Assembly: GCA_045658985.1 (NCBI GenBank)
Contig: JAZOWC010000068.1
Span: 464 to 64,463 of the forward strand
DNA length: 64,000 nucleotides
Direction: 5' to 3'
DNA from: Oscillospiraceae bacterium
Lineage (GTDB): Bacteria > Bacillota > Clostridia > Oscillospirales > Butyricicoccaceae
Below the pieces are notes generated by a model that was not told the origin of the DNA, searched no databases, and saw only the letters and a list, made by a program, of their open reading frames with translations. This document shows, in pieces, positions 10,439 through 53,274 of this stretch (position 1 is its first letter; each line of letters opens with the position of its first letter). Made by a program: the position numbers and the translations under genes.

Positions 10439-10443
10439 AGGTG

Positions 10444-10472: not shown

Positions 10473-10482
10473 GCATCATACC

Positions 10483-10511: not shown

Positions 10512-10548
10512 TATAATGTATAAATATCTTTTTTCGGAGGCGTTTTTG

Positions 10549-14979: not shown

Positions 14980-14993
14980 GGAGGTAGAGAGCT

Positions 14994-22117: not shown

Positions 22118-24508
22118 TCAAAATACCAGCGACGGGCGCAGCACGCAGAAGGCGTTCTTGCCCAGAATGGAGTTCATAAGGCTTACGGCTTTTTCGGCGT
22201 TCATTATTTTTGCGCCTCCCGACGTCATATAGAGCAGTTCGCAGCCGTCAAGCACCAGATACACGCTGCAGGAGCTTCCGTCCGAGCTGCTTGAGACAAG
22301 CAGGATATCTCCGGTGAGGAGCATGGACGGCTTGAGCATCTGTATACGGTCTTTTTGATAGGACGAATTATCCACGTACCATCCGCCGTAGAGCGAGGGC
22401 ACCACGAGAGGATCGGCGCGGAGATTGAGGTACTCCCCTACTCTCGATGCCGAGAACAGACGGTCAAACAGAGCCTTCTCGTTGGTCAGGCGGATATTGT
22501 CACCCACTACCGAAGTGTATACGCTGTTGATTATCTGACCCATTGTGGCTCGGGAGCCTGTTTGCGCCCGTGCGGCTTTGTCCAAAGCCGCCATCTGCGA
22601 GGTTGTAAGGGTATTGGCAACGTAAATATCGGCGCAGTACAGCTCGATGCCGTTGACGGCAGTATATCCGCTGCCGATGCTGCTGCCCAGACCAACGTCA
22701 CCGTTGACCGTGACCGTGTAGCTGACCTCATATCTCTCGCCGGGTTCAAGCGCGGTGCTCCAGCTGAGAGTTCTGCCGCTGACCCGATCGCCGCCGCTGA
22801 CGAGAGTGGTATTGTCGGGCAGGGTCGCGGTAACAGAGATAAATCTGCTCTTGGCGGACGTGTTCTCCACGCTGACAGTATAGGACACCCTGTCACCGGG
22901 GTTGGCGCTCTTGCCCTGAGGATGGCTGGTCAGCTTCTGCGCGATGATACCCGTCATACCCGACATACGGTCGAGGGTCTTTTGGGGAATAGGAACGTGG
23001 ATGACATTGAGGGGGCGGAGGATGGCGAATCGGCCGGTTTTGGGCAGGTAGCGGCTTGAGGAGGGATTGAAGTAGGTCTCGCTCAGCTCATCATAGCGGA
23101 TGCTGCCGTTTTTTTCAAAAACCTCGCCCGAGCCGTAATTATAATTGCTGCCCGTACTGTGGACGTATCTGCCGTTGCCCACGTACATAATAATATGTCC
23201 GTTGCTCTCGTCTGCCAGACGGGTAACTATCATATCTCCGGGCAGGAGCAGGGATTTGACCCGATCGATGAGGGATTGTTTCTCCCCCTCGGTCTCGCTG
23301 CCCGTATTGTCATAATAGAACACGGTCATATCCTTGCGCTCAATAAAGTCTGCAGTATACCACGACACGATATCATAGTCAAAGGTCTCGCGGATCAGGG
23401 TGTTGATAAAGCAGGCGCAATTGGTATATACGGTGTTCTGATCGGTGGCAAGTTCGGGTGACTGCAGGCCGTGGCGGTGGCGGTACACAGCGGACATATT
23501 GCTGTGGCGCTTGACAAGACGGGTGTCGTCGTACTGTATTCGGCTGCCGCGGTTAACGTAGGCATCGGCGGTGGCAATAAGAGCGCGGGCGCCCTCCGAG
23601 TAATACTCGTCACCGCTCCAGAGGCTATCCGTGTCATCGGGCACGATGGGATCGGCAGGTGTGACGGGTATATGGGGAGGATCATCGGGTTGCCCGGGGG
23701 CAGGATCGGGGACAGCGGGCGTGGGATCGGGGACAGCGGGGGTGTCTGCAGGAGGCTGCACGGTGCCCGAACCGACTATAATGATCTCCACCGCCGCAGA
23801 TACCGTATATGCCGAGCCGCCCGTAGACTTGTCAACGCCCGTGATGCGGCAATATACAAAATAGTGGTCTCCCATCTCGTGATCGAGGGGCAGGTTCAGC
23901 GCGGATGTATCTGTCTGCTCCAGAAAGCTGCCGCCGACAGAGTCGGAGTTTGAATCTATATACCAGTCATAGGTGTATAGCGTACCCGACTGCTCCTTGA
24001 CGGCAAGCTTGAGTACGCCGCCGTTTGATGCGGAGGCGGTAAGTTTTTTGGGTATCTCGTCGATCTCAGGCGGGGTGAGAGTGATCTCCTGCCAGAGAGC
24101 AGTGATAGTCAGGTCGGATACAACGGGAGAGTCAAAGCCGTACTCCTCCCCTGCTGACGTCCATCCGCAGAAAGCATAGCCTTGGCGCACCGGATCGGAG
24201 GGTCTCTGAACCCTATCCCCCTCGGTCACCGACCGAATGAAGGCAGCATCACCGTTCTGCAGATCAAAGGTCACGGTAAACACCGACGGGACAGAAGGCT
24301 CGGGATCATCTGCTGTGGGAGGTACAGGTGTGGGATCGTCGGGCAGAGGCGGTGTGACGGGCGCGTCGGGTGTATCGGGAAGATCGGCCGAGGTCTTGTC
24401 CCCGTCTGCCGCGGGTGCCTGATGGGTATCATCGCTCGAGCAGGCGTACATAAACACAAGCAGCATACAGAGGATGATGGATATATATTTTTTGAATACT
24501 GTGCTCAT
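22118..24508 (-). CDS. 796-aa secreted lipoprotein: Pro-rich linker, Listeria-Bacteroides (InlB B-type) repeat, Ig-like module, papain-fold (NlpC/P60-like) domain, DUF11-like repeat
   Basis: Signal peptide plus lipobox (VFMYACSS). GYAFCGWTSAGEEYGFDSPVVSDLTITALW repeat. YTNCACF ... GDMIVTRLADESNGHIIMYVGNGRYVHS suggests a Cys/His hydrolase. GDRVSYTVSVENTS resembles a DUF11 repeat. Confidence 0.7.
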   Translation of the reverse strand: MSTVFKKYISIILCMLLVFMYACSSDDTHQAPAADGDKTSADLPDTPDAPVTPPLPDDPTPVPPTADDPEPSVPSVFTVTFDLQNGDAAFIRSVTEGDRVQRPSDPVRQGYAFCGWTSAGEEYGFDSPVVSDLTITALWQEITLTPPEIDEIPKKLTASASNGGVLKLAVKEQSGTLYTYDWYIDSNSDSVGGSFLEQTDTSALNLPLDHEMGDHYFVYCRITGVDKSTGGSAYTVSAAVEIIIVGSGTVQPPADTPAVPDPTPAVPDPAPGQPDDPPHIPVTPADPIVPDDTDSLWSGDEYYSEGARALIATADAYVNRGSRIQYDDTRLVKRHSNMSAVYRHRHGLQSPELATDQNTVYTNCACFINTLIRETFDYDIVSWYTADFIERKDMTVFYYDNTGSETEGEKQSLIDRVKSLLLPGDMIVTRLADESNGHIIMYVGNGRYVHSTGSNYNYGSGEVFEKNGSIRYDELSETYFNPSSSRYLPKTGRFAILRPLNVIHVPIPQKTLDRMSGMTGIIAQKLTSHPQGKSANPGDRVSYTVSVENTSAKSRFISVTATLPDNTTLVSGGDRVSGRTLSWSTALEPGERYEVSYTVTVNGDVGLGSSIGSGYTAVNGIELYCADIYVANTLTTSQMAALDKAARAQTGSRATMGQIINSVYTSVVGDNIRLTNEKALFDRLFSASRVGEYLNLRADPLVVPSLYGGWYVDNSSYQKDRIQMLKPSMLLTGDILLVSSSSDGSSCSVYLVLDGCELLYMTSGGAKIMNAEKAVSLMNSILGKNAFCVLRPSLVF

Positions 24509-24618: not shown

Positions 24619-24632
24619 ATTAAAGCTTGATA

Positions 24633-27600
24633 TCAGCCGAGGATTGCCATAACTGCGGCATTCTGGATGGCAGCTGCGTCGGCAGCGCTGATGCCCTCAG
24701 GAACGTAGACCACAGTTGCGGGAGTTGCCTGGAAGATCTCTGCGTATACAGAGCAAGCCAGGAGGTAGCCGCCCTCGATATCGATGGTGTCGGAGATGCT
24801 GTTTGTGTAGGGATTGACGCCCTGTGCAAGACAAGCTTCGACAGCGGTTGCGTAGCTGATGACGATATCGGTATCGCCTGCCAGCTTCTTGGTGTTTGCC
24901 TCGATCAGATCGGCATAATCGGTTCTGTCGGAGATACCGTTATTGTTGACCTGATCACGGAAGTACTGGCTGACGGTGTTCTGTCTTGCTGCGGGAGCAA
25001 CGATCATGACCTTGGCCTTTGCATTGTTCTGCAGAGCAAGCTCGCGGACAGCCTTGGCTGCGGCGGCTTCTGCGTCGAATGCTGCGGTGTCGAACAGAAC
25101 CTTGTCCTTGCCTGCTTCGACGATGACGTAATCGTACTCAACGCCGCTGTACAGAAGCTGAGTGCTCAGTGCGGCATTCTGTGCTGCCTGCTCCAGAGAC
25201 TCGATACCGGGGATAGCCATAACGTACAGCTCCTTGCCGGTCTCCTCTGCGATTTCGGCGAGCATATCTGCAACGTCACTGTCGGTCAGAGCTGCACCTG
25301 CAAGCAGGACGTTGGTTACTGTGCGCTCCTTGTAGCTGTCGGTTACGGGAGCGGGATCGACCTTGTCCAGATCAAGTACGACCTCTGCGGCGATAGCCTG
25401 AAGCTTTGCGCCGACGGTGGGCTTGACCGAATAGTTGTCGCTCTCAAATCTCATAATGCCAACGGGGCTCTTGCCGGTGATTGCGGTATACATACAGCAG
25501 GCGATAAGATAGCTGCCCTCGTTGCTTGCGTGGTCAACACTGAGGCTGACATAGGGATCGATCTCGGTGTTGGCAATACATCTCTCAAATGCGTTTGCAA
25601 GGCTCATAACGGTCACGTCGGTTCCGACTGCGGGGAGAACCTTCTCCTTGACAAGCTTGTTGATGGCATCGGCATGCTCGGTGCGGGTGGTGATGTTTAC
25701 ATCAGCAAACTTGTACTTGGTCAGATCCTGACGGGCAAACATAACGTCCAGAACGATCTTGACGTTGGGGTTGTATGCCTTTGCCAGATCGATGATGCCC
25801 TTGAGAGCGGTGATATCGCTGTTAGCGGTAGAGCTGTGGATAACGGCGTTGTCACGGCCGACCTGCAGGACGATGACGTCAACTTCGCCATCCTGCAGCT
25901 GTGCGCGGACTTTGCTGTAGCCGTCGCCTACAAGACCGGTCTCCCAGATGTTCCATGCGCCGTTGCCGACAACAGTTCTGATCTCGGCCTCATAGCCTGC
26001 TTTTTCAAGCAGCTCACCGACATACTCGGTGGTGTCAAAGCTGTAGGATGTGCTGGAGTAGGTCATAGACAGAGAACCAACCATCAAAACGGTCAGATCG
26101 GTGTCATTGTACTCCTTGGCATTGGGTGCTACCCAATATGCGGGACGGGTGGCTTCTTTCTCGGTGAGCCACTTTGCGCGGAGGGTAAGTCCGCCGTAGG
26201 GCATCACTGCGCCGTCAAAGGAGAACTCGTTATTAAGAGCGGCATCTGTGTACCAGCCCTTGAATACGTAGCCTGCCTTGACAGGGGTCTCGGGAGCGGT
26301 GAGGGCGGTGCCCATCTCGGCTGTGACGGCCTCAATCTCGCCTGCGCCGTCGGTGTCAAAGGTTACGGTAAAGGCAGTGGCAGCCTCGACCTCGATACCG
26401 AGGACGAACTTGGTTGCCAGCTTCTGCAGTGCGATAGCTGTCTCAACGTCGACTGTTGCGTCAACGCCGCCGATGTTGGAGCCGAGAGCGCCTACGCCGA
26501 CGGGGGTCTCACCGAACATTGCAGCGTAAATAGCGCTGGCGGTCAGGTAGGAGCCCTTGGGGGTAGAACGGTTACCGACGTTTGCACGGGTGGCAACGTC
26601 ATTGGGTTCGCGGAACAGATCAGCCTTGATGACTGCTGCGTCGTCGCTGTATGCCTCAAACAGATCGGCGATAGAAACGACCACTACGTTGGCGATACCC
26701 TTGTCCTTGATGAACTGAGCCATCTCCTCTGCCTCTGCGGTGATCAGAGCGGCATGGGTCTTGTGATCGGTAACGGTAACGTTGGTGAAATCAGCAAAGT
26801 TTGCCTGATGACCGTAGGGAGCTGCGATGATGACCTTGACGTTGGGGTTCTTGTCATAGGCGATCTTTGCCAGCTTGTATGCGGAAAGGATGTTCTGGGT
26901 CTTGCTGCTCTCGCTGTTGATGGAGAAATCTCTGCCCGACTGCAGAACGATATAATCGAACTTGGTGGATGCAAAGCCGTTCTTGGTGTCGGTGCTGGAG
27001 ATGGTCATATCGGTCTCGGAGGAACGTGCGGAGGATGCGAACAGCTCATACAGATTGTATGTTGTCCATGTGGTACCGTGGGTTGCCTGAGCCTTGACGA
27101 TGTTGACGGGCTTGCCCTGACCTGCCTCGATCATCTGAACGAGTGTGTCGGTCATGTTGTAAGAGCCCATCATCATGCCGCCGAATACGTACATATTGAC
27201 AGCACCTTCTACGGTCTTGTCCTCGACCTCCTGAGGCTTCTCGGGAGTGGGATCAACGGGCTTGGGCTGAGCGGTGCCGCCGGACACCACCTGAGCAGCC
27301 AAAGCCTGAAGCTTGGCTGCTGTAGCGGCGTCAACGTTGGCGTCCCAGGTGATTTCGCCTGCGCTGTTTTTGCCTACTGTACCGGTGGTCTTGAGGCCAA
27401 CGGGGCTCTGATCGAGCATTGCGGTGAAGATACCGCAGGCTGCCAGATAGGAACCTGCAGGGTTGGAGCGGTTGCCGACGTTCTTTCTGCCGGTTTCTGC
27501 ATCGGGCTCACGGAACAGTTCAGCCTTGATGACTGCTGCGTCATCGCTGTAAGCCTCGAACAGGCTGCCCAGAGAAACGATCTCAACGTTCTTGGCATAG

Positions 27601-30600
27601 CCCTGGCTGAGGATGTAGCCTGCTACGGATGCGGCTTCCTGATCGATGTACTTGACGTGAGTCTTGTGGTTGGTCACAACGGGATTGGTCAGGTCTGCAA
27701 AGTTTGCCTGATGGCCGTAGGGAGCAACCAGAATGATCTTGACGTTGGGGTTCTTCTGAGCTGCCAGCTTGGCGATCTTGGCGGCTGCGTACTCAACCAT
27801 ACCGTCATAGGAGCTGCCCTCTACCAGAGAGAAGTCTCTGCCGGTCTGGATAAGAACGTAGTCAAAGCTGACTTCCTGAAGCTTCTGCATAGCCTTCTGT
27901 GCGGAAGAGCCGCTGCCGAAGGTCATATCGGTAGCCGAGTTACGTGCGGAAGATACGAACAGCTCCCATACGTTATAGGTAGTAGCTGTGGAAGTATGAC
28001 CCAGATATGCATCAACGTGGACTTTGACTTCCTTGCCGGTAGCTTCTTTGAGCATATTGGTCAGGGTAGCTGTTGTGCCGTAGGAGCCCATGGGATGGCC
28101 GCCGAATACAAAGATATCAACGATATCATCGGGCTCGGTGGGGACAACTGTGGGAGGAGTTACGGGGTCAGCGGGTTCGGGGGTCAGGGTGACCTTCTGG
28201 TCGGGCTTCTCGGTGGGAACCTTGCCGCCGAGGACGTAGTCTGCTGCCAGCTTCTGCAGTGCTGCAGCGGTGGTGGCGTCGACCTTGCAGTCGGTGGTGA
28301 TTCCGCCCTCTGCGTTGAGGATATCTCTGCCCAGAGTGGTCAGACCCTCGGGGCTCTTGTCAAACATTGCGGCATAGATACCTGCTGCTGCGAGGTAGGA
28401 ACCCTTGGCAGAAGCACGGTTGCCGGTGTTGCCGCGGCTGGTAACTGTGTTGGGCTCGCGGAACAGATCCTTGTAGATGTCCACAGCCTTGTCGCTGTAG
28501 CACTCAAACAGATTACCGACGGAGACGATCTCTACGTTGGCAATGCCGTCATTCTTGAGAGCCTCGTATGCACGGAATGCCTCGTAGTTGATGAACTTGA
28601 CGTGCTTTGCGTGGTTGTCGATGTTGTAGGTCTTGAAATCTTCCCAGGTTGCGGTGTGACCGTAAGGAGCAACAAGCAGAACTTTGACGTTGGGGTTCTT
28701 GGCTGCTGCCAGCTTGGCGATCTTGCGAACTGCGATGACGTTCTTGTTGTAGGAAGTGCTGCCCTCGATCAGAGAGAAGTCTCTGCCCATCTGGATAACC
28801 AGAACGTCATATGCGTTGGTTGTCAGTTCTTCGTTGACGCGCTTGCCGGTGGTGGAAGAGGAGAACTTGATCTCGTCTTCTTTGCTCTGAACGCTGCTGT
28901 CAAACAGCTCGTAGAGGTTCCATGTAGTGCTGGTGGTATTGTGTACCAGATATGCCTCTGTATCTGCAATGACTTCCTTGCCGGTGCCTTCTTTGATCAT
29001 CTCGGTCAGAGTGTTGATCATATTGTAGGAGCCGAACATGGGGCCGCCGAAAGACCATACGCGGATGCTGTCGCCGTCTGTGGAGACGGGAGCGGTAGTG
29101 TCTGCAGGCAGAGTGTAGGTGGGAGCGGGGGTCTTGTCAACAGGCTTCTCCTGAACGATACCGTCCTTGTTTGCCCATGCGCCGTAGATGGTCACGTTGC
29201 CCAGAGGCATCTTGCCGGACATAAAGCTGAAACGGGTATTGAAATCGGGATCGTAGAACCAGCCTGCAAAGAGCAGATCGCCCTTGGTGGGATCCTTGGG
29301 AGCTTCGATGACCGAGCCGGCCTCAGCGGTGATGGAAGCAACCTCGCTGCCGCCGTTGGTGTAGAAGTTCAGGGTGGACTGGGTAGAAACCGTGCCCTCA
29401 TACTCGGTGCCGAAGACGGTCTTGTGAGCGGTCTTCTGGAGCTTGAGGAGCATTGCGCCGTCTGTGACAACACCGGGAGCGTTCTGGCTGCCGCCTGCAT
29501 AACCGCTGTAGGTCATGCCAACGGGAGACTTGTCATAGATGGTGGAGTAGATGGTTGCTGCTGCCAGATATGCACCGGCCTCGCTTGCACGGTTACCGGT
29601 GTTTGCGCGGGTTGCGATAACGTTCTTCTTCTGATACAGATCGTTGGTGATGTCGTCGGGGTTATCGCTGTAGTTGAGGAATGCATCGGAAACGTATGCG
29701 ATCTTGACCTGAGAAGCAGGCAGATAGCCGCCGTTGACGATGGAGTCTCTCATTGCTTCGGCCTCGGAGTTGATGAAGGGTACGTGCTGCTCAAGGCTGC
29801 CGATGGTGTAGAAGTCGGAGAAGTTTGCGTTATGTCCGTAAGGAGCATAGATGATGAACTTGACGTCGGGGTTCATCTTGGCTGCCAGAATAGCAAACTT
29901 GGTTGCGGAGATGATGTTGTTGGTTCTGGAGTTGTCGTTCTCCATGGAGAAGTCACGACCAGACTGAATAATAACATAGTCCAGCTTCTTGGAAGTAAGA
30001 GCATCCTGCATCTTGGCTCCGTAAGAACCGAAGCTGATGGTGTTGATATCGCTTCTGGAAGAAGATTCAAACAGCTCGTAGAGGTTATAAGTGGTGGATT
30101 CACTGGAGTGGCCCAGCCATGTGATAGTGAGGTTGACCTTCTTGTTTTCTTCCTTTTCCATCATTTCGACAAGGGTCTTTTCCATGTTATAAACGCCGAT
30201 GGGGTATCCGCCGAACATCAGGACGTTCATCTCGCCGCCGGTGGGCTTGGTTACGGGATAGGTGCTGAGCTCGGTGGGATTGGGATACTTGTAAGCAGGG
30301 TCAAGATCCTTGGGATCTACGGGAGCGTCGGGATCTACCCATGTATCAACGTACTTGACGTAGCCGGATACATCGGGCAGGGTCTCGGTCTCGATACCCA
30401 GAACATGCTTTGCGGCCAGAGCCTGCAGCTTGACGCCCTTGGCAGGCTCAACGGAGAAGTTGCCTGCGTCGAAGCACATAACGCCTACGGGGCTCTCGTC
30501 AAAGATAGTTGCATACAGACCGCAGGCCATCAGGTAGCTGCCGTATACGTCTGCAAAGTCGGAAACGTCATTGCCCCAGGGGTTGATATCGGTCTCTTCG

Positions 30601-31142
30601 AGGCAAGCCTCAAACAGAGTGTTCATATCGGAGGTCAGGTAGGGCATCTTGAGCAGCTCGGACTTTTCGTCCCAGTACATCTGGATAGCCTCAGAGTGCT
30701 CCTTGCGGTTGGTGATGACGGGGTTGTGCTTTGCATAGGGATCGGTGTAGTACTTGCTGGAGGTATCCTGACGTGCGTAGGAGATCATGGGAACGACTAC
30801 GACGCCGGGGTTCATCTCCTTGCAGATGGAGTAGATGCTGTCGATAGCTGCAAAGTCGGAGTTTCTGGTGCTGGAGCTCTGTACCATACAGTAGTCACGG
30901 CCGAGCTGCATAACGATGAAGTCATAATGTCTCAGCTCGTACATAGCCTGAACGGTAAGGAAGCCGTCACCGACAAGGCCGCTCTCCCAGATGTTGTAGT
31001 TGGAGCCGACGGTCAGCTTGTCAACGGTAACGCCCTTGCCGCTGGCGCGGGCCAGAGTCTGCAGGAACAGAGCCGAGTCGTGAGCTGCGCCCTCGGTGGT
31101 GCGGTGCATAACGCCCGAACCGATCATCAGGACGGAGATGGT
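24633..31142 (-). repeat. Tandem array of about 300-350-aa protein-coding modules (A-B-B-B-B-A-A' order)
   Basis: Module starts recognisable at ISVLMIGSG, MNVLMFGGYP, IRVWSFGGPM, VDIFVFGGHP, VNMYVFGGMM, LTVLMVGSLS and VTNVLLAGAA. Divergent at the DNA level, so these are not recent duplicates. Confidence 0.7.
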
Positions 31143-31850
31143 GCGGTCCTCGACCTCGACCTTGATGGTGTCGGACATGCTGCTTGCTGTAGCGCCGCTG
31201 GCGTTACGGGTACCTGTTACCTCACAGTATACCCAGTATTCCTTGCCCTTTTCCAGATTTCTGGGGAGGGCTGCGCCTGCTGCGGTCTGGCCCTCGATGA
31301 GAGTGCCGCCGCTGTTCTCGTTCTTGTCGTTGATGTACCACTTGAAGGTGTAGGAGTAACCACGGGTCTCCTTGACCTTGACCTCAACGCTGCCGCCTGC
31401 GAAGGGAGCAGCCTTGACGACCTCGGGCAGCTCCTCAAGTACGGGAACTACTGCGGGATCCATAGTCCAGGTTGCGGTGACGGTAAAGGGAGCTTCGACA
31501 GCCTTGCTGAAGTCATAAGCTTTGCCGTCTACCTGCCACTCTTTGAAGGTGAAGCCGGTACGGGAAGGATCATAGGGTTTTTCCAGCTTCTCGCCCTTTT
31601 CAACCTTCTTGGTTGTGGGAGCGGAGCCGTCAGCCAGATCGATGGTGACCTCGATCTTCTCGGCCTTGGGAGGTTCGGGATCAACGGGGGGCTTGGGATC
31701 TACGGGCGGATTGGGGTCTACGGGATCCTGAGTGCCGGGATCTACTGTGCCGGGTTCTTCTGTCTTGTCGCCGCAGGCGAAGGAAAACAGCAGAGCGCCG
31801 CAGAGCAGAACGAGCAGGCTCAGCTTGAGAATGCTTTTCAGTCTTTTCAT
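24633..31850 (-). CDS. 2405-aa surface lipoprotein built from about 7 SGNH-hydrolase-like modules plus InlB-type repeats and an Ig-like module
   Basis: MKRLKSILKLSLLVLLCGALLFSFACG (lipobox) and a PxDP linker. Recurring module pattern hhhFGG..MGSYN / hhIQ.GRDFS / NPNVKhhhhAPYGH / GNRAs..GSYLAA..hYaamF..sPvG, read 4 times. Variant modules occur at both ends. Confidence 0.8.
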   Translation of the reverse strand: MKRLKSILKLSLLVLLCGALLFSFACGDKTEEPGTVDPGTQDPVDPNPPVDPKPPVDPEPPKAEKIEVTIDLADGSAPTTKKVEKGEKLEKPYDPSRTGFTFKEWQVDGKAYDFSKAVEAPFTVTATWTMDPAVVPVLEELPEVVKAAPFAGGSVEVKVKETRGYSYTFKWYINDKNENSGGTLIEGQTAAGAALPRNLEKGKEYWVYCEVTGTRNASGATASSMSDTIKVEVEDRTISVLMIGSGVMHRTTEGAAHDSALFLQTLARASGKGVTVDKLTVGSNYNIWESGLVGDGFLTVQAMYELRHYDFIVMQLGRDYCMVQSSSTRNSDFAAIDSIYSICKEMNPGVVVVPMISYARQDTSSKYYTDPYAKHNPVITNRKEHSEAIQMYWDEKSELLKMPYLTSDMNTLFEACLEETDINPWGNDVSDFADVYGSYLMACGLYATIFDESPVGVMCFDAGNFSVEPAKGVKLQALAAKHVLGIETETLPDVSGYVKYVDTWVDPDAPVDPKDLDPAYKYPNPTELSTYPVTKPTGGEMNVLMFGGYPIGVYNMEKTLVEMMEKEENKKVNLTITWLGHSSESTTYNLYELFESSSRSDINTISFGSYGAKMQDALTSKKLDYVIIQSGRDFSMENDNSRTNNIISATKFAILAAKMNPDVKFIIYAPYGHNANFSDFYTIGSLEQHVPFINSEAEAMRDSIVNGGYLPASQVKIAYVSDAFLNYSDNPDDITNDLYQKKNVIATRANTGNRASEAGAYLAAATIYSTIYDKSPVGMTYSGYAGGSQNAPGVVTDGAMLLKLQKTAHKTVFGTEYEGTVSTQSTLNFYTNGGSEVASITAEAGSVIEAPKDPTKGDLLFAGWFYDPDFNTRFSFMSGKMPLGNVTIYGAWANKDGIVQEKPVDKTPAPTYTLPADTTAPVSTDGDSIRVWSFGGPMFGSYNMINTLTEMIKEGTGKEVIADTEAYLVHNTTSTTWNLYELFDSSVQSKEDEIKFSSSTTGKRVNEELTTNAYDVLVIQMGRDFSLIEGSTSYNKNVIAVRKIAKLAAAKNPNVKVLLVAPYGHTATWEDFKTYNIDNHAKHVKFINYEAFRAYEALKNDGIANVEIVSVGNLFECYSDKAVDIYKDLFREPNTVTSRGNTGNRASAKGSYLAAAGIYAAMFDKSPEGLTTLGRDILNAEGGITTDCKVDATTAAALQKLAADYVLGGKVPTEKPDQKVTLTPEPADPVTPPTVVPTEPDDIVDIFVFGGHPMGSYGTTATLTNMLKEATGKEVKVHVDAYLGHTSTATTYNVWELFVSSARNSATDMTFGSGSSAQKAMQKLQEVSFDYVLIQTGRDFSLVEGSSYDGMVEYAAAKIAKLAAQKNPNVKIILVAPYGHQANFADLTNPVVTNHKTHVKYIDQEAASVAGYILSQGYAKNVEIVSLGSLFEAYSDDAAVIKAELFREPDAETGRKNVGNRSNPAGSYLAACGIFTAMLDQSPVGLKTTGTVGKNSAGEITWDANVDAATAAKLQALAAQVVSGGTAQPKPVDPTPEKPQEVEDKTVEGAVNMYVFGGMMMGSYNMTDTLVQMIEAGQGKPVNIVKAQATHGTTWTTYNLYELFASSARSSETDMTISSTDTKNGFASTKFDYIVLQSGRDFSINSESSKTQNILSAYKLAKIAYDKNPNVKVIIAAPYGHQANFADFTNVTVTDHKTHAALITAEAEEMAQFIKDKGIANVVVVSIADLFEAYSDDAAVIKADLFREPNDVATRANVGNRSTPKGSYLTASAIYAAMFGETPVGVGALGSNIGGVDATVDVETAIALQKLATKFVLGIEVEAATAFTVTFDTDGAGEIEAVTAEMGTALTAPETPVKAGYVFKGWYTDAALNNEFSFDGAVMPYGGLTLRAKWLTEKEATRPAYWVAPNAKEYNDTDLTVLMVGSLSMTYSSTSYSFDTTEYVGELLEKAGYEAEIRTVVGNGAWNIWETGLVGDGYSKVRAQLQDGEVDVIVLQVGRDNAVIHSSTANSDITALKGIIDLAKAYNPNVKIVLDVMFARQDLTKYKFADVNITTRTEHADAINKLVKEKVLPAVGTDVTVMSLANAFERCIANTEIDPYVSLSVDHASNEGSYLIACCMYTAITGKSPVGIMRFESDNYSVKPTVGAKLQAIAAEVVLDLDKVDPAPVTDSYKERTVTNVLLAGAALTDSDVADMLAEIAEETGKELYVMAIPGIESLEQAAQNAALSTQLLYSGVEYDYVIVEAGKDKVLFDTAAFDAEAAAAKAVRELALQNNAKAKVMIVAPAARQNTVSQYFRDQVNNNGISDRTDYADLIEANTKKLAGDTDIVISYATAVEACLAQGVNPYTNSISDTIDIEGGYLLACSVYAEIFQATPATVVYVPEGISAADAAAIQNAAVMAILG

Positions 31851-31983
31851 ACGCTTTCTCCTTTTTTGTAATGAGTTTGCGATTGTTTTTCGTGCTTTTG
31901 GTTTGCGGGACAGTGTTTGCTGTAGGTTGTATCCGTCGGGGTATCGGGGTTCAATACCCCGACGGATGAATTGGAATCAAAAC

Positions 31984-34900
31984 TTAGTCGATGACGTGAG
32001 TGTCAACGAGAACGTCTGCCCAGTACTTGATGATGGAGCCGACGAAGTAGTCGGATACGCTCCAGGAGTTTCCGCTTTCGCTGGAGTTCTTGAATCCGGA
32101 AGGAGCGGCAACTGCATCAAGATCGATGTCTACCATCATCTTTGCAACCATGTTGTACAGCATTGCTGCGCCTGCGGGGCCCATGTTGCGCTTGTTGGCA
32201 TCGCTGTAGTTGTTGACCAGCAGCGAGTAGCTTGCGGTGGAGCTGCTTGCCATATTGGATGCATCTGCTGCGGCAACGTTTGCTGCTTCGCCGAATCTGA
32301 GCAGCTTGATATCGATGTCAACCTCGTTGCTCTCGAGGGCTGCCTTGATCTTGTCGGCATTTGCGCTGATCTTGGTTACCTGCGCTGCAGCAGAACCGTA
32401 CTTGCTGATATCATCTGCGTGGCCGGAGCCGGTTGTTGCCAGAATGATCATCTCACCGTCGGGGTTGTGATCATACAGCATTTTTTCCAGACGGGCAATA
32501 TTGGTAAGCTCGCTGTTGTAGGTGCTGGTGTAGATCAGACCGCCTCTGCGGTTTACAGCCACAAGTACGTAGTCCCACTTGAATACGCCGTAATCCACGT
32601 CATTGTGAACGGTGTTGTTGTCTACTGCATCCAGGAACTTGCCGACCGATCCGCCTGTGGAGAACTCGCCGTCATCCTTGACGGTGAACAGCTCGCTCAT
32701 CAGGTACAGACCGCCGGTTGCGGTATTGTTGACTGTGGGAGTGTAGCCTGCGTTGATGAGCAGGTCTCTCAGCCACTTGTGAGCATTCATATAAGATGCT
32801 GTTGCATAGCTGTCACCGACCATCATAAGGTTGATTGTCAGCTTTGCGGTATCAGCAACCTTGACTGTGAAGGTATCAACTGCGGTCTCGTTGGAAACGG
32901 TGACCTTGATTGTATCCTTGTCGGGAGTTACGGGTACGCTGATGATAGCTGTGCCGTCTTCGCCCACTGTTGCAAAGCCTACGCCTGCTTCGCTCTGTCC
33001 GATGACGGTTGCGCCCTCGGGGCCGGTTGCGATCAGCTCAACGGTGTGGCTGTTCTGCTTGCCGTTGTAACGGAGAGTGCCGTCCAGAGTCATTGTCTCG
33101 CCCGCTGCGATCGCATCGCCGCCTGTGAGACCTGCGTTGAGTGCATTGGGTGCCAGAGCAACTGTTGCGCCCAGTCCGTCGCCCTCTACGGTGAACTGAC
33201 CGAGAGCAATGTTCTTGGCATAACCGTAAGCTGCGCCGCCTGTTACGTCAGCGGTGACTGTGTATGTGCCGGGTCTGGTGGGAACGCCTGCTGCGCCGTT
33301 GAACTTGACGGTGACTTCGCCAACGCCCTCAGCGGCTTCTACTGCGCCGGTTGCGCTGTCAAAGGTCAGCTGTGCAGCGGTGACTGCAGGCTTGCCGGTT
33401 ACGAACATATCTGCGATCTGCAGAAGCAGGGTTGCTGTATCCTGAGCAATTGTATAACCCTCAGAGCCCAGAGTCTCGATGTCGAGAACGCTCTCGCTGA
33501 GGATAGCACCTGTCAGAACGGCTGCGTTCAGATATGCGCCGCTTGCGCTGGGTCTGTTGCGCTTTGCGGAGAATGCTCTGCCGCCCTTGCCTTCTGCGGT
33601 GGAGTAGAGATCGTCTTCGACGCCTTCGTTGAGGATGTAGTACTCGACTGCATCGACTACGTTGGCGATCTTGACCTCGACCTTGTTCTCTGTGTCGGCT
33701 GCATTCAGCTTGTCACGGATCATCTGTGCACGGCACTGAACAACGTCTGCGCTCTTTTCACGGCTGTTAAGTGCGAACCAAGCGGTGCTTCTCAGATAGG
33801 GGAAGTCAGTATTCTGCTTGTACTCATAGCCGCGCAGGTTGTAGCTGGTTTCGGAGAAGCCCTGTCTGATACCCATCTGTGCAAAGAGGATGAGTTCTGC
33901 GCCGGGCTGATTCTCAGCGATAAGCTCCTGCAGGCAAAGCAGAGCATTGTCCTCGAGCTTGATATAGTCGCCCTTCATACCTGTATAGGTATTGTTTACT
34001 TCCATGATGTAGTAATCATAGGGCTTGGCGCCGGTAAGGGTATTCTTGAGTGTGGAGTTGGAGACACCGCTCACTGTAGTGCCGGAGCGGCTGAAGAGCT
34101 CCCAGGAGTTGTAGCTCGAAGAAGTAGAATCCCAGCTGAGACCGTTGGCAGCTATGTCAACGCTTGTGCCGAGCTTTTCTTCCAGCATAGCTTCCATAGT
34201 TCTCATAAGGCCGTTGCTGTACAGCATCCATGTGCTATGCATATAGATGTTGATGTCTGCCCAGAGTTCTGCGCTGACACCGACGATCAGCTCTGCTGCC
34301 ATCTCGTTGTCCTCGTCATAGACGTAGACGGTAACGGTGGTCTCGCCGCTTTCGAAGGCGTACAGAACCTCTGCAGTACCCTCTGCGGATGCGGTGAACT
34401 CACGGACATCGGTCTCACCGTTCTTAAGGCCGATCAGCTCAAACTTGGCATTGGGGATCAGCTTGCTCAGCTTGAGGACTGCGGCGTGATGCTCGGTTGC
34501 ATCGAAGCCTGCGCCTGTCAGGTCGGCTGCATATTCCATGTAGCCCTTGACGGTTTCTTCCTCAAAGCGAACGCCGTTTGCCAGAGTCTCGTTGGTAAAT
34601 CCGTCAACCTCGGTGGTTGTGTCGATCTCAACGACGGGGTTCTCAACACCGGTCTTGGACCACTTGCCGGTGAAGGTTGCGCCGCCCAGAGGCATTGTGA
34701 AGGTGCCGTCTGCAACATCTGCATCGTAGGTTACCCAGCCGCCGAATGCGTAGCCTTCCCATACGGGATCAGCTTCGACAGAGACGGTGGAGCCCCACAT
34801 GTAGGACTTGGTCTCGGGGAGATTGGGCTTGTTGGTATTGTTGAAGTAGTTGCCGTAGGCATAATCTACTGTGTAGTACTGTCTGTCATAGTATACTTTG

Positions 34901-37710
34901 AATACTGCGCTGCCATCGTTCTCCAGCAGGCCAACACGTCTGCCGTCGGGATGGTTTGCATTCTCCTGATAGCCGTCGATGTACTTTGCCTCGGCATAGA
35001 AGACGGAGCCGTCAGCCTTGCCAAGGAGGTTATCGGTATAGCCCAGGGTGTAGGTCTCACCGTCTGCATTCTGCAGGTAGTGCTCGACCTTGTAGGTTAC
35101 GTACTTGGAAGAAACATACTGCTGGATCATCAGCGCTGCTTCCGCAGGGGTCAGACCCAGTCTCTCAAGGTCTTCCACAGTCTCTGCCTCATCGGCTTTG
35201 TCGAGAGCGCCCACGCCGTTGCCCAGATACTGGACACCTACAGGAGATTCTTCGGTCACGGCCTCATAGAGGAGGCAGGCCAGCAGGTAGGAGCCCAGAG
35301 CGCTTGCGCGGTTACCGGTATCAAGACCTCTGTGGTAGCCGGCGCTGGTGGTGGCGTTGTTGGAGGGACGGTAGAGATCATCGGTGATCTTGTCAAGATC
35401 GGTGCTGTAGTTTGCAAAAGAGTTGGATGCATACACGAGCTTGACGGGCTTGTTGAGGTAGCCGTCTGCGTCGATATCGGCCTTCATCTGATCGGCCTCA
35501 ATATTGATAGCCGCTACGTGCTCATAGTATGTATCGATGTGGGTGTTCTTGGTACCTGCGCTGAAGTCCTTTGCCAGACCGACGGTATGAGCATAAGGAG
35601 CGATCAGGATCACCTGACAGTCGGGATTGATGTCGGCTGCCATCTTGGCGATCTTGCGGACTGCGTAATTGTTGTATCTGGAGTCGCCTGCCCACATCAG
35701 AGAGATGTTCCTGCCTGTGTCAAGAATGACGTAGTCAAAAGCTTTGGACTCCAAAGCGGCCTTGAAAGTCTGAGCGGTGGAGCCTGTACCGAAGGTATAA
35801 TCGTTGAGATTATCTCTTGCGGAGGAGGCAAACAGCTCGTATACGTTCCAGGTGCCGGAGGTGCTGGTATGACCGCAATAGTCGATTGTGGTGTTGTACT
35901 TGACGCCCTTCTCGGTCAGCATATTTCTGAATGTGCTGTGTGCGTTGTAGGAACCAAGTATATGGTCACCGAACATAAAGATGTTGAGAGCCTCGTCCTT
36001 GACTGTGACGGAAGCGATCTCAGAATTGCTGGTGGCGGTCTTTTCGCCCAGATAGGATGTAGCTTCGCAGTAGTAGTAGAAGGTCTGGCCGAGCTTGGAG
36101 CTGTCGGTGGGCTTGATAACCAGATTTCTGGAGGTTGCGCCCGATACGGGTACGCCTTCGTACTCGGGGGTCAAGCTCATGTACCACTGATAGGTATAGC
36201 CGTGATCCTTCTCCTCATCGACTGCGGCGGTGAGGGTGATGTCCTTGCCGTAGTACTTGGTGGAGGATTCGGCGGGATTTACGGTGAATACTGCGGGAAC
36301 GGGATCGGGGGTGATAACGGGACGCTCAACTGTGGGAGCAGAACCGGGCAGGGCTGTACTGCTGCCTGCTGCGACTGCGCCGCCGTTGGCGGTAACGTTG
36401 GCGGACTCTGCGCCTGCTGCAACGACTGTACCGAAGGTGCTTACTGCGATGTCGGTGCCGTTGGCGGTAACTGTGCCTACGCTGCCCCAGCCGGAAACCT
36501 CAACGCCTGTGCCGTTGGCGGTAACTGCGCCGATGTCTGCGCCGATCTCAGCCTTGACGGTGGTATCGGTTGCGGTCTTGTCGTCTGCGATCAGGCCAAC
36601 AACGCCCACGACGGACACCTTGCTGCCATCGCCGCTGACGCTGACTGTATCAATGATGCCGTGAACGCCGACGTTCAGTACCGAGCTGTCAACTGCAACG
36701 CTGTCTGCCTTGCCGTTGATATTCAGAGCGGCATTCTTGCCGTTTGCCACGGCTGCGGTGACGGTTGCACCCTCTGCAACGGTGACGGATGCACCTGCGT
36801 TGGCTGTAACGATGTCTGCCTCGCCCTTGACAGTGACCTTGCCGCCGTTGGCAACAAGGCTGCGGAGGTCTGCAAAGTCAGCGGTAACGCTGCCTGCCAC
36901 GCCGCCCACTACCAGAGTGCCGTCAAAGGTACCCTTTACGGTAACAGCCTCGTCTGTGGCGATAACTGCCAGACCTGTGCCGCTGACGGTGTGTGTGCCG
37001 CCCTCGGTGATGTAGTCGGTAATCAGACGGTCGGAAATAACTGCCATCTCGCCGCGTACGATGGAGCCCTGTGCGTTGATATAGCCGTTCTCATCGCCCT
37101 TGATGATTCCTGCTGCGATGAATGCGCCCATATAACCGGCTGCCCAGTCGGAGACCTCTTCTTTGCCGCTCAGGGAGCAGAAACGGAGAGCCGACTTGTT
37201 CTCGGTCACACCGAGAGCACGGCCTTTGAGGGTGACGTACTCTTCACGGGTGAGCTGATCCTCGGGACGCATGGAGCTGATGCCGTCACCCTGCATGATG
37301 CCCTCAAGATACAGAGCATAGATGTAAGGAGCGTACCAGGCGTCTGCGGGAACGTCTGTAAACTTGGCAAAGAAGTCGGCAGGTACGTCCTGCAGCTTGA
37401 TGCCGGCGGTAAGTACGATAACTTTGGCTGCCTCTCCGCGCTTGGCGGTATTGCCGCCTGCAAAGAGGTTGTCGCCGACGCCGTTGAGAACGCCGACTTC
37501 TGCCCATCTCTGAGCAGCAGCCTCATAATATGTGCCTGCCGTATCCGCAAATGCGCCCTCTTCGGGAGCTGCGGTACCGGGGGCAGTGCCTGTAACAGGT
37601 GCAGCCGTAGTCACAAAGAATGTGTCTGCCTCTGTCGCCGCTGCGGTCGGCATTACCGAGAGCAGCATGGCAATGGCAAGTACCAATGCCGAAATGCGTT
37701 TTTTCATCAT
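31984..37710 (-). CDS. 1908-aa S-layer-homology (SLH)-anchored surface protein with a beta-helix-like repeat region, Ig-like modules, an InlB-type repeat and 3 SGNH-like modules
   Basis: Signal peptide, then three SLH repeats (FADTAGTYYEAAAQRWAEVGVLNG, FTDVPADAWYAPYIYALYLEGIMQG, VSDWAAGYMGAFIAAGIIKG). Modules LNIFMFGDHILGSYN...GNRASALGSYLLAC, INIYMHSTW...NRPSASGAYLNAA and LMMVGDSYATASY. Confidence 0.8.
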   Translation of the reverse strand: MMKKRISALVLAIAMLLSVMPTAAATEADTFFVTTAAPVTGTAPGTAAPEEGAFADTAGTYYEAAAQRWAEVGVLNGVGDNLFAGGNTAKRGEAAKVIVLTAGIKLQDVPADFFAKFTDVPADAWYAPYIYALYLEGIMQGDGISSMRPEDQLTREEYVTLKGRALGVTENKSALRFCSLSGKEEVSDWAAGYMGAFIAAGIIKGDENGYINAQGSIVRGEMAVISDRLITDYITEGGTHTVSGTGLAVIATDEAVTVKGTFDGTLVVGGVAGSVTADFADLRSLVANGGKVTVKGEADIVTANAGASVTVAEGATVTAAVANGKNAALNINGKADSVAVDSSVLNVGVHGIIDTVSVSGDGSKVSVVGVVGLIADDKTATDTTVKAEIGADIGAVTANGTGVEVSGWGSVGTVTANGTDIAVSTFGTVVAAGAESANVTANGGAVAAGSSTALPGSAPTVERPVITPDPVPAVFTVNPAESSTKYYGKDITLTAAVDEEKDHGYTYQWYMSLTPEYEGVPVSGATSRNLVIKPTDSSKLGQTFYYYCEATSYLGEKTATSNSEIASVTVKDEALNIFMFGDHILGSYNAHSTFRNMLTEKGVKYNTTIDYCGHTSTSGTWNVYELFASSARDNLNDYTFGTGSTAQTFKAALESKAFDYVILDTGRNISLMWAGDSRYNNYAVRKIAKMAADINPDCQVILIAPYAHTVGLAKDFSAGTKNTHIDTYYEHVAAINIEADQMKADIDADGYLNKPVKLVYASNSFANYSTDLDKITDDLYRPSNNATTSAGYHRGLDTGNRASALGSYLLACLLYEAVTEESPVGVQYLGNGVGALDKADEAETVEDLERLGLTPAEAALMIQQYVSSKYVTYKVEHYLQNADGETYTLGYTDNLLGKADGSVFYAEAKYIDGYQENANHPDGRRVGLLENDGSAVFKVYYDRQYYTVDYAYGNYFNNTNKPNLPETKSYMWGSTVSVEADPVWEGYAFGGWVTYDADVADGTFTMPLGGATFTGKWSKTGVENPVVEIDTTTEVDGFTNETLANGVRFEEETVKGYMEYAADLTGAGFDATEHHAAVLKLSKLIPNAKFELIGLKNGETDVREFTASAEGTAEVLYAFESGETTVTVYVYDEDNEMAAELIVGVSAELWADINIYMHSTWMLYSNGLMRTMEAMLEEKLGTSVDIAANGLSWDSTSSSYNSWELFSRSGTTVSGVSNSTLKNTLTGAKPYDYYIMEVNNTYTGMKGDYIKLEDNALLCLQELIAENQPGAELILFAQMGIRQGFSETSYNLRGYEYKQNTDFPYLRSTAWFALNSREKSADVVQCRAQMIRDKLNAADTENKVEVKIANVVDAVEYYILNEGVEDDLYSTAEGKGGRAFSAKRNRPSASGAYLNAAVLTGAILSESVLDIETLGSEGYTIAQDTATLLLQIADMFVTGKPAVTAAQLTFDSATGAVEAAEGVGEVTVKFNGAAGVPTRPGTYTVTADVTGGAAYGYAKNIALGQFTVEGDGLGATVALAPNALNAGLTGGDAIAAGETMTLDGTLRYNGKQNSHTVELIATGPEGATVIGQSEAGVGFATVGEDGTAIISVPVTPDKDTIKVTVSNETAVDTFTVKVADTAKLTINLMMVGDSYATASYMNAHKWLRDLLINAGYTPTVNNTATGGLYLMSELFTVKDDGEFSTGGSVGKFLDAVDNNTVHNDVDYGVFKWDYVLVAVNRRGGLIYTSTYNSELTNIARLEKMLYDHNPDGEMIILATTGSGHADDISKYGSAAAQVTKISANADKIKAALESNEVDIDIKLLRFGEAANVAAADASNMASSSTASYSLLVNNYSDANKRNMGPAGAAMLYNMVAKMMVDIDLDAVAAPSGFKNSSESGNSWSVSDYFVGSIIKYWADVLVDTHVID
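36990..37550 (-). other. Triple SLH cell-wall anchoring region of the 1908-aa protein
   Basis: Three roughly 55-aa SLH repeats at about aa 55-240. Coordinates are approximate. Confidence 0.7.
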
Positions 37711-37869
37711 GGTGCCTCCTTTATTTTTCTCCTAATGACGGGTAGGAGTTATATACAATCGCGAGCCGCCGTACGGTGTGCCTTACGACAAAAACAGACA
37801 ACAACTCACTATAATTGTAGTTAAAAATATAATACCATAATTAATTTTTTATTACAAGATTTTTACCAG

Positions 37870-40279: not shown

Positions 40280-41473
40280 TTATGCTTCTACGCCTTTTTC
40301 GCGCAGGCGGAACTTGAACTCATCCTTGACAGCCTGACGGAAGTCTGCATCGGTGACAAAATCATAGGTCACGCCTGCCATAATGGCGGCGCACTCTCTG
40401 ATAAAGTCGGTGGCCTTCTGAGTCTTGCCCAGCGCAACGTGCTCGGGAGAATGGCCTGCAACGCCTTTGTTGTACTCGGCGCGGACAAGGATACCGGGGC
40501 ACACATAGGACACGTTGCCGAAATCGGTAGCACCGCCGCCGCAGACCTGCAGGGCTGCTTCGTCCAGATGCTGAACGTCGTCAAAACCGAACAGTCTGGC
40601 ATTGTTCTCCGATGCGTCGCACAGAGGCTTGTTGACCACGGTATCGTAGAACACGGGGTTGCGGGTGACTTTGACCTGAGTCTCGGTCATCATTGCGCTG
40701 CCCTCCATGACCTTGAGCATACGGCGCACCATATCCTCCAGATAGGTTTTGTCGGAGGCACGCATGGTTACCCATGCCTTGGCTTTGGGGTGAACGATGT
40801 TGGCGGCACCTGTACCCTCCATAACGGTATAGTGGATACGCGAGCCGGTCCTGACGTGCTCACGCATACACTCAAGGCCGTGGAATGCCAGCATCATAGC
40901 GTCCAGAGCGCTGCGGCCTTTTTCGGGTGAGCCGCCTGCGTGGGCATTGATGCCTGTCCACTCAACGATAGATGATGCCAGCGCCACGTTGGTGCCGCTG
41001 CCGCCTGTGTGAGTGCCGGTATGGTTGGAGAATACCATGTCCAGCTCCTTAAAGCAGCCTGCCTCAACCATATTGATCTTGCCGCCCTTGTTTTCTTCGG
41101 CGGGAGTGCCGTAGATAACCAGCTTGTAGGGGACGTCCTTGAGATTGTCACGAATGGCGAGGGCTGCACCGATGGCGGCAGGGGTCTGCAGATGATGTCC
41201 GCATCCGTGGCCCAGATTGGCCAGTGCATCATACTCGCCGAGGAATCCAACGACGGGGCCGCCCGTTCCCTGCTCGTACTCAGCGCGGAATGCGGTAGGC
41301 AGTGTGCCTGTTCCGATCTCAACCTTGAAGCCCTTGTCCTTGAGGTAATCGGTGAGGACCTTGCAGGCGTATTCCTCCTCAAAGCCTATTTCGGGATGGT
41401 CAAATATATCATCGCTGAGTGCTCTCAGCTCGGTCATATAACCGTCGATGGACTGCAAAAACTTCTGTTTCAT
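40280..41473 (-). CDS. M20-family amidohydrolase, AbgB-like, paralog 2
   Basis: DDIFDHPEIGFEE, GEYDALANLGHGCGHHLQ, GTPAEE. 397 aa. Confidence 0.8.
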   Translation of the reverse strand: MKQKFLQSIDGYMTELRALSDDIFDHPEIGFEEEYACKVLTDYLKDKGFKVEIGTGTLPTAFRAEYEQGTGGPVVGFLGEYDALANLGHGCGHHLQTPAAIGAALAIRDNLKDVPYKLVIYGTPAEENKGGKINMVEAGCFKELDMVFSNHTGTHTGGSGTNVALASSIVEWTGINAHAGGSPEKGRSALDAMMLAFHGLECMREHVRTGSRIHYTVMEGTGAANIVHPKAKAWVTMRASDKTYLEDMVRRMLKVMEGSAMMTETQVKVTRNPVFYDTVVNKPLCDASENNARLFGFDDVQHLDEAALQVCGGGATDFGNVSYVCPGILVRAEYNKGVAGHSPEHVALGKTQKATDFIRECAAIMAGVTYDFVTDADFRQAVKDEFKFRLREKGVEA

Positions 41474-41490
41474 AGCCGTTGCTCCTCCTC

Positions 41491-42684: not shown

Positions 42685-42686
42685 AA

Positions 42687-48548: not shown

Positions 48549-48562
48549 TTTTAACTCCTGAT

Positions 48563-50125: not shown

Positions 50126-50132
50126 TATACGA

Positions 50133-51695: not shown

Positions 51696-51700
51696 AGTGA

Positions 51701-53269: not shown

Positions 53270-53274
53270 AATGA

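Follow-up and report, generated by a model that had tools for sequence, protein, structure and literature searches.

Divergent DUF4886-type SGNH modules without canonical catalytic residues on two giant, putatively surface-anchored proteins of an Oscillospiraceae bacterium

Some SGNH esterases bind polysaccharide through their active-site cleft, as CE2 esterases like CtCE2 do; these enzymes, which still have a catalytic dyad, are members of another SGNH family than the modules considered here. The window that we analysed, a 64,000-nucleotide (nt) stretch of DNA from an Oscillospiraceae bacterium (GenBank assembly GCA_045658985.1, contig JAZOWC010000068.1, positions 464 to 64,463 of the forward strand), carries two neighbouring genes for giant proteins, A and B, which are built from ten modules that form a divergent, rare and unannotated branch of the DUF4886 family (PF16227). 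DUF4886 is without a characterised member and is listed as uncharacterised (PMC9487903), and its solved structures, 4s1p and 4i8i, are those of uncharacterised proteins. A non-catalytic SGNH fold is known from the OSK domain (PF17182) of Drosophila Oskar, which binds RNA (PMC9487903). A preliminary description of the same DNA, made from the letters and their open reading frames (ORFs), had proposed two giant surface proteins with SGNH-hydrolase-like modules that lack the canonical catalytic motifs, and had named an alignment of the catalytic blocks, the modelling of single modules, a search for the architecture in other genomes and a look for assembly artefacts as ways to check the proposal.

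The modules are homologous to DUF4886 over ∼225 columns and have the same fold; common to both are a ‘DYVxxQ’ strand, an ‘NP’ turn and, in block V, the helix ‘G(S/A)YLxAxxxY...SPxG’. Canonical DUF4886 proteins, however, are single-domain proteins of ∼250 amino acids (aa) with GNS, LQE(Q/N) and DxxHPS motifs, whereas up to seven modules are found per protein here, with a variable residue at the Ser position, Val or Thr for the Asp, Arg for the His, G-R-D in block III and an insertion of ∼25 aa. The likeness to OSK is that of an SGNH fold without catalytic residues that is (or, for the modules, would be) used for ligand binding; in contrast to OSK, which is eukaryotic, intracellular, single-copy and RNA-binding, the modules are bacterial, predicted to be extracellular and arranged in tandem, and the two are likened at the level of the fold. 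The CE2 enzymes provide the concept of an SGNH catalytic cleft as a glycan-binding site, but here too homology is seen at the fold level only (4xvh gave a weak Foldseek hit). While the fold, the parent family and the non-catalytic SGNH precedent (OSK) are already known, a search of the literature for SGNH modules that bind without catalysis turned up no direct precedent, and neither a description nor an annotation appears to exist for the dead subfamily, for its amplification in tandem on giant scaffolds or for its coupling to NlpC/P60 proteins.

Two giant proteins and their ten modules

Protein A, a 2405-aa lipoprotein, is encoded at 24633–31850 and protein B, a 1908-aa secreted S-layer homology (SLH) protein, at 31984–37710, both on the minus strand according to ORFs and translations; the lipoprotein and the SLH-anchored protein of the preliminary description are thus both present, one with a lipobox and the other with three SLH repeats. 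Protein A is 100% identical to the NCBI protein P0156. Its signal peptide and lipobox, read from the sequence, occupy residues 1–26 (31773–31850, minus strand; ending ...LLFSFAC), the N-terminus being MKRLKSILKLSLLVLLCGALLFSFAC|GDK with the lipobox Cys at position 26, and are followed by a Pro-rich linker, a Flg_new domain, an Ig-like domain, modules A1–A2, Flg_new, A3–A5, Flg_new and A6–A7, for which Pfam reports three Flg_new domains (the Listeria-Bacteroides repeat), DUF4886 and Lipase_GDSL_2. An identical N-terminus is found in the orthologue at L003, a locus in the goat-colon metagenome-assembled genome (MAG) Clostridia bacterium RGIG2138. The product of gene C, which lies directly downstream of A and is discussed below, has a lipobox of its own (...LVFMYAC23); the motif of both A and C is kept in their orthologues, and many relatives, like the adjoining SBP_bac_5 protein, have a similar ‘..FAAC’ or ‘..FAGC’ lipobox. 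Position –3 of the A and C lipoboxes is non-canonical, and lipidation is predicted.

Protein B starts with a hydrophobic N-terminus that serves as predicted signal peptide (MMKKRISALVLAIAMLLSVMPTAAA), followed by three SLH repeats (Pfam SLH, E = 6.4e-20 in three stretches; ∼residues 52–235, 37006–37557, minus strand, boundaries approximate) that predict anchoring to the wall, a repetitive Gly/Val/Thr-rich region, an Ig-like domain, B1, middle domains, B2, Ig-like domains and B3. The repetitive region (residues 236–470, 36301–37005) is rich in Gly, Val, Thr and Ala, with short periodic repeats and no Pfam match; within it, at 36382–36543, the DNA repeats every 63–66 nt and the peptide repeats resemble ‘VTANG..V.VSG’. 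This region may be a β-helix or stalk-like spacer.

The span 24633–37710 contains two long ORFs on each strand, and translations resemble proteins on the minus strand only. The giant plus-strand ORFs (24627–31871 and 31732–37824) were rejected as shadow ORFs, their translations being low-complexity nonsense. Across the GC-rich part of the window nearly all real genes are faced by a long antisense shadow ORF of this kind, reaching 2414 aa opposite A, which is a trap for ORF-based gene calling.

With one module as seed, phmmer found seven copies in A and three in B, and a hidden Markov model (HMM) built from all ten and run over the window found no additional copy, which bears out the earlier count of about ten. 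The earlier view of them as repeated modules also held, although at ∼235–310 aa they are slightly shorter than the 300–350 aa first given. All motifs quoted at that time are literally present, namely FGG..(M/F)GSYN, IQ.GRDFS, GNRAS/GNRSN, GSYLAA..IYAAMF..SP(V/E)G, MMVGDSYA (in B3) and SVDHAS (in A6). Pairwise identity between modules ranges from 16 to 52%: A2, A3, A4, A5 and B1 form a central type with 37–52% mutual identity, A1 and A6 form a second type (type II, 38% identity), and A7, B2 and B3 are each distinct, with 16–26% identity to other modules.

All ten are encoded on the minus strand; where given, the ratio of non-synonymous to synonymous substitution rates (dN/dS) is that against the L003 orthologue. 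The central type comprises A2 (residues 536–822, 29385–30245; FGGYP, GVYN, GRDFS, PYGH, GNRAS; dN/dS 0.13), A3 (residues 922–1228, 28167–29087; FGGPM, GSYN, GRDFS, PYGH, GNRAS; dN/dS 0.21), A4 (residues 1240–1545, 27216–28133; FGGHP, GSYG, GRDFS, PYGH, GNRSN), which is the module that was modelled, A5 (residues 1547–1826, 26373–27212; FGGMM, GSYN, GRDFS, PYGH, GNRST; dN/dS 0.23) and B1 (residues 570–880, 35071–36003; FGDHI, GSYN, TGRNIS, PYAH, GNRAS; dN/dS 0.18). The type II modules are A1 (residues 232–505, 30336–31157; IGSGV as block I, GRDYC, SYARQ, VSDFAD), which has no catalytic Ser or His, and A6 (residues 1912–2168, 25347–26117; VGSLS, GRDNA, MFARQ, SVDHAS), which weakly matches Pfam Lipase_GDSL_2 and DUF4886. 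A6 is joined without a linker to A7 (type III; residues 2169–2405, 24636–25346; LAGAA, AGKDK, PAARQ, ISDTID), the module that matches Pfam DUF4886 best, and the pairing of the two is conserved. The divergent modules of protein B are B2 (residues 1148–1455, 33346–34269; HSTWM, EVNNTY, QMGIR, KRNRPS; dN/dS 0.33) and B3 (residues 1620–1908, 31987–32853; VGDSY, the sole GDS, and no block V His; dN/dS 0.14).

To place the modules in a fold we ran AlphaFold2 on A4 only, from an 11-sequence alignment. The resulting model is confident (pLDDT 82.4, pTM 0.85), has the strand and helix order β1-α-β2-...-β5, and shows the three-layer α/β/α architecture of the SGNH fold (Pfam clan CL0264). Its best matches in a Foldseek search of the PDB are nearly all SGNH/GDSL esterases or acyltransferases, with a probability of 1.00 (4h08, 8ik1, 7e16, 3skv and 4q9a among others; TM-score by target 0.6–0.65), and 4xvh is a weak match. 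Aligned by hhalign to a profile of 16 bona fide DUF4886 proteins, all of which match PF16227 (best E = 5e-23), the central-module profile scored a probability of 99.8% with E = 3.1e-28 over 225 columns. The relation to an SGNH-type family proposed from the sequence therefore stands. Direct sequence comparison is far less telling, as a PDB sequence search with the ten-module profile returned nothing significant (best E = 0.38), and the link to the fold came only from structure prediction and profile–profile comparison. Against the Pfam gathering threshold of DUF4886 (26.7 bits), protein A as a whole scores 61.5 bits (8e-17), driven by A6 and A7, and protein B 14.6 bits; taken singly, A7 (26.0 bits), A6 (24.6 bits), A2 (21.6 bits) and B1 (20.6 bits) all fall just below the threshold, and the scan of A1, A3, A4, A5, B2 and B3 gave no DUF4886 match.

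Mapping the columns of canonical DUF4886 onto the modules by profile alignment shows that the signatures IGNS, LQE(Q/N) and D..HPS are replaced and that only the GSYLxA...SPxG helix is kept. In the central modules block I changes from IGNS, with its Ser nucleophile, to FGG-x, block III from LQE(Q/N)(S/T) to Q-x-G-R-D-F-S, and block V from D-x-x-H-P-S to (V/T)-G-N-R-A-S. The nucleophile column is occupied by G, Y, P, H, M, L, A, H and W in nine modules and by Ser in B3 only, while the block V His column holds Arg in A2–A5, B1 and B2, Phe in A1, Thr in A7, a gap in B3 and His in A6 only. Ser and His are found together in none of the ten window modules, and the alignment contains no intact Ser-His-Asp triad. 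The Asn of a GxND block III is likewise missing, the block reading Q-x-G-R-D-(F/Y/N)-S in A1–A6, TGRNIS in B1, AGKDK in A7, VNNTY in B2 and VNRRG in B3; since canonical DUF4886 reads LQE(Q/N)(S/T), block III is already atypical in the parent family. For the block II Gly no column could be assigned, hhalign leaving the region of the ∼25-aa insertion after β2 largely unaligned.

The preliminary description had seen hints of catalytic residues in VGDSYA and SVDHAS. Both strings exist, but they are not conserved. A6, considered as a residual active esterase, has Leu at the nucleophile column and Ser at the block V Asp column, and its His is Leu in both the L003 orthologue and the fragment P0003; B3, considered likewise, lacks the His of block V, and at L003 its orthologue has GDG instead of GDS. 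A Ser nucleophile relocated to ‘GSYN’ (S17) is unlikely as well, this position being Val in A2 and Thr, Asn or Ala elsewhere, with 70% conservation. With the His of A6 and the GDS of B3 lost in orthologues, no module is a credible canonical esterase, and by its sequence none of the ten reads as one. The same holds for 30 central-type modules from several genomes, in which the former nucleophile column is occupied by Tyr in seven, Phe in seven, His in six, Gln in three, Met in two and other residues in the rest, and the former His column by Arg in 26, Lys in two, Cys in one and Gly in one.

In place of the catalytic set, a different one is kept. Across these 30 modules N221, G227, Y229, P138, P244 and D91 are 100% conserved and position 99 is invariably Arg or Lys; N54 and H159 reach 97%, E57 and R/K222 93%, H46 87%, H141 83% and D100 80%, and there is no invariant Ser, Cys or Thr. 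On the secondary structure of A4 the conserved residues fall in the loops after β1, β2, β3 and β4 and just before the block V helix, elements that, going by homology, would form the active-site cleft of an SGNH enzyme. A further conserved feature of the central type is an insertion of ∼25 aa, TTYNxxELFxSSxR, after β2 and next to block II, which is absent from canonical DUF4886. D91, K119, N128-P129, SPxG and GxYL are common to the modules and canonical DUF4886 and look structural, and the non-central modules A1, A6, A7, B2 and B3 lack the conserved polar residues of the central type.

To ask how these sequences evolve we compared the window genes with their L003 orthologues by the Nei–Gojobori method. 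Every module has a dN/dS of 0.13–0.33, with overall values of 0.22 for protein A and 0.26 for protein B, so the modules are maintained by purifying selection and are not decaying. These values, together with the syntenic orthologues, indicate that A and B are real genes.

Relatives and the NlpC/P60 cassette

The L003 locus has the same gene order as the window, with orthologues of B (1925 aa, 66% identity, three modules), A (2413 aa, 79% identity, seven modules) and C followed by a DUF1846 gene. A second locus, L004 in the goat-rumen MAG RGIG3513, encodes two tandem giants with four and six modules. It took an exhaustive HMM search of 1.84 billion cluster representatives to find the family: 213 proteins had E ≤ 1e-3, of which 38 reached E ≤ 1e-10 and 14 reached E ≤ 1e-30. 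Multi-module proteins recur among the relatives, with two to seven modules each, and many relatives are lipoproteins or SLH proteins. All named relatives come from MAGs of unclassified Clostridia and are annotated just as ‘S-layer homology domain-containing’, ‘InlB B-repeat-containing’ or ‘hypothetical’. The architecture, which the preliminary description did not recognise from elsewhere, is therefore indeed rare but is not unique, multi-module relatives being found among uncultured Clostridia of one small clade.

Of the 117 module instances that are full-length, 34 have both Ser and His and 65 have neither, and the family forms a gradient from canonical DUF4886-like proteins of ∼250 aa with Ser and His, through intermediates with GD(S/A), (G/S)RD and (H/Y/T)PS, to the dead central type. 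Word-indexed protein searches with A4, the ten-module alignment and A6 returned only P0001, P0002 and P0003, and P0002, an ABC_tran protein, was discarded as a spurious match. P0001 (267 aa, no signal peptide) is probably part of a larger protein, cut short by a wrong start or a frameshift, because its ORF (L001 399–1448, L002 435–1484) continues for 80 codons upstream of the start that was called, into the end of the gene called before it.

The partner of the modules emerges from gene C (22118–24508, minus strand; Pfam), which encodes a 796-aa lipoprotein and is separated from A by 124 nt. Its product consists of a lipobox, a linker, Flg_new, an Ig-like domain, NlpC/P60, DUF11/DUF7927 and a C-terminal domain, and shares its N-terminal layout with A at 31% identity. 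The last three elements make up a cassette of ∼500 aa (residues 293–796, nt 22121–23632) that aligns by BLAST with 29 of the 161 proteins examined, nearly all of which bear modules; identity is ∼45% for P0009 and P0010 and 25–32% for many others. In lipoproteins such as P0009, P0010, P0012, P0014 and P0025 (most members of this group are lipoproteins) the same module family and the same cassette, at 25–46% identity over ∼500 aa, are united in one polypeptide, usually with one of each, whereas the window has the cassette in a gene of its own and the modules amplified on two giants. Some of these relatives, unlike the window modules, retain Ser and/or His. The fusion is a Rosetta-stone type link, drawn from sequences, between a putatively dead SGNH module and a predicted cysteine peptidase, and the module is more commonly found fused to the NlpC/P60 and DUF11 cassette than in giant scaffolds, a context that is absent from the preliminary description.

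The NLPC_P60 domain of gene C is recognised by Pfam with E = 2.7e-6 and 27.7 bits (threshold 23 bits), and Cys72, His146 and His158 of the cassette are invariant in 13 cassette sequences. An AlphaFold2 model of the cassette (pLDDT 86.4) matches in Foldseek the bacterial NlpC/P60-type peptidases 7v6t and 7v6u (TM-score by target 0.66–0.68) as well as transglutaminases and β-sandwich adhesin or CBM-like domains. With its invariant Cys/His/His and an NlpC/P60-like model, the cassette is apparently an active cysteine peptidase of papain-like fold. In the C-orthologue at L003 (1063 aa, L003 13678–16869) a central-type module stands between the Ig-like domain and the cassette, and this module is not present in gene C of the window; it represents a recent gain or loss between sister species.

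Surrounding genes

Directly upstream of B lies a gene for an SBP_bac_5 lipoprotein of the Opp/Mpp peptide-binding type (38047–39897, minus strand; Pfam, lipobox). SBP_bac_5 also adjoins relatives at L004 and L005, and no SBP_bac_5 neighbour is found at the module-and-cassette loci L008 and L009; its association with the module system is possible but no more than suggestive. A conserved peptide-uptake neighbourhood of SBP_bac_5, M14 and M20 genes was considered and dropped, since it occurs in the window, L004 and L005 but not at L008 or L009, and counts as a weak hint. On a second contig of RGIG2138, L005 (7501–12688) is a cluster of three lipoproteins in which a single-module SGNH-like protein (556 aa) sits between an M14 zinc carboxypeptidase (515 aa) and SBP_bac_5, an arrangement that hints at a link to peptide or muropeptide processing. 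A DUF1846 (UPF0371) gene directly follows gene C both in the window (20526–22010, minus strand) and at L003 (16953–18455), the synteny being conserved.

The window region is strongly enriched in hydrolases of peptides and amino-acid derivatives (peptidases and amidohydrolases). Immediately upstream of the gene for SBP_bac_5, at 40280–42693 (minus strand), is a pair of neighbouring M20/M25/M40 peptidase paralogues of 397 and 400 aa. Six paralogous ORFs of ∼520 aa in tandem at 46980–56463 (minus strand), all Amidohydro_3/Amidohydro_1, form an unusual local amplification flanked by genes for an M20 peptidase (45530–46939) and an MmgE/PrpD protein (56496–57839), and four tandem M42 glutamyl-aminopeptidase paralogues (11923–16013, plus strand) are preceded by a Mur-ligase-like gene (10381–11907) and followed by a gene of the Met γ-lyase family (16017–17243). 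The first ∼10 kb of the window (1–10000) has a GC content of 0.375–0.50, compared with 0.52–0.58 elsewhere, and may be a foreign or mobile segment.

Possible roles of the modules

The loss of catalytic residues combined with purifying selection leaves two options: either the modules are pseudo-enzymes that retain a function, or they are enzymes whose active site is non-canonical. Both options offered by the preliminary description still stand. On balance we lean towards reading the modules as dead DUF4886-type SGNH esterases that are kept as ligand-binding units, displayed multivalently on the envelope and working with the NlpC/P60 peptidase; with the catalytic residues lost but selection retained, they most likely bind rather than cut. 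Protein A would present seven modules from a lipid anchor and protein B three from an SLH anchor on a cell-wall polymer, as their anchoring signals predict, and the Flg_new and Ig-like spacers would hold the modules apart to give a multivalent binding surface on the envelope of a monoderm gut Clostridia bacterium. The polar set kept in the loops of the former cleft (Arg/Lys99, Asp100, Asn54, Glu57, His46/141/159, Asn218/221 and Arg/Lys222) could line a single binding pocket, and the two basic residues conserved in it suggest that the ligand carries an anionic group. We propose that the ligand may be a cell-wall-type glycan or muropeptide, and that binding might capture or position substrate for the NlpC/P60 enzyme, in which case the modules would have a targeting role.

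Several points weigh against this picture. The glycan or muropeptide proposal draws solely on the NlpC/P60 association and the envelope location, DUF4886 offering no characterised member to compare with; the gathering of the conserved residues in one pocket is deduced from homology to the SGNH block positions; the conserved His, Glu and Asp leave room for a non-canonical catalytic site; and the association with peptide-uptake genes is inconsistent from locus to locus.

Were the central modules still enzymes, with a relocated Ser-independent site assembled from some of His46/141/159, Glu57, Asp100, Arg99 and Arg222, this would fit the strong conservation of these residues in loops at the former active-site face and the purifying selection on all modules, and the ∼25-aa TTYNxxELFxSSxR insertion could supply new catalytic groups. 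We nevertheless regard this as distinctly unlikely: none of the candidate acids or bases is invariant (H141 83%, D100 80%, H46 87%), no Ser, Cys or Thr nucleophile is conserved (S17 at 70%, with Val in A2), A1, A6, A7, B2 and B3 are without the candidate residues, and seven tandem copies per polypeptide are, as a general matter, typical of binding repeats and not of enzymes. The more elaborate version, in which a new Ser-independent centre (Arg99/Asp100, His46/141/159, Glu57 and Asn221/Arg222 plus the TTYNxxELF insertion) would work processively along a cell-wall polymer from a surface scaffold with many sites, seems to us very unlikely. A purely structural role is unlikely too. Modules that serve as spacers or blocks of an S-layer-like lattice, without a specific ligand and with their conserved residues devoted to folding or inter-module packing, would be at home in envelope proteins of this size, with their many domains and their SLH and lipid anchors; D91, K119, N128-P129, SPxG and GxYL, which are shared with canonical DUF4886, look structural, and the linkerless fusion of A6 and A7 is conserved. 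A spacer, however, needs none of R/K99, N221, R/K222, N54 and E57, which are kept across paralogues that are ∼35–50% identical and across genomes, and the recurrent fusion to an enzyme cassette suggests a functional partnership.

In our judgement there is a practically negligible chance that the giant ORFs are spurious, be it through repeats that were mis-assembled, collapsed or expanded or as shadow ORFs that code for nothing. ORFs of more than 2000 aa do occur on both strands of one span and the sequence is internally repetitive, but signal peptides, Pfam domains and homologues are confined to the minus-strand translations. The DNA repeats between modules are just 60–90% identical over stretches of less than 100 nt, and an independent goat-colon MAG has the same 3 + 7 layout in synteny at 66% and 79% identity with dN/dS of ∼0.22–0.26. 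As far as sequence data go, the divergence of the repeats and the synteny of the whole locus in a second MAG rule out an assembly artefact, and the check for artefacts named at the outset thus came out against them.

The reading of the modules as dead esterases kept for binding is a lead and not a mechanism. It would make the family a case of the conversion of an enzyme into a binder followed by amplification, with the gradient still visible from GNS/DxxH through GD(S/A)/(H/Y)PS to the dead FGG/GNR type. It also exposes an annotation gap, as proteins of 1900–2400 aa, which count among the largest surface proteins that their hosts (uncultured ruminant-gut Clostridia) have, are named by their SLH or InlB-repeat parts only. 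For DUF4886, the recurrent partnership with an apparently intact NlpC/P60 peptidase at the Gram-positive cell surface may offer a functional handle.

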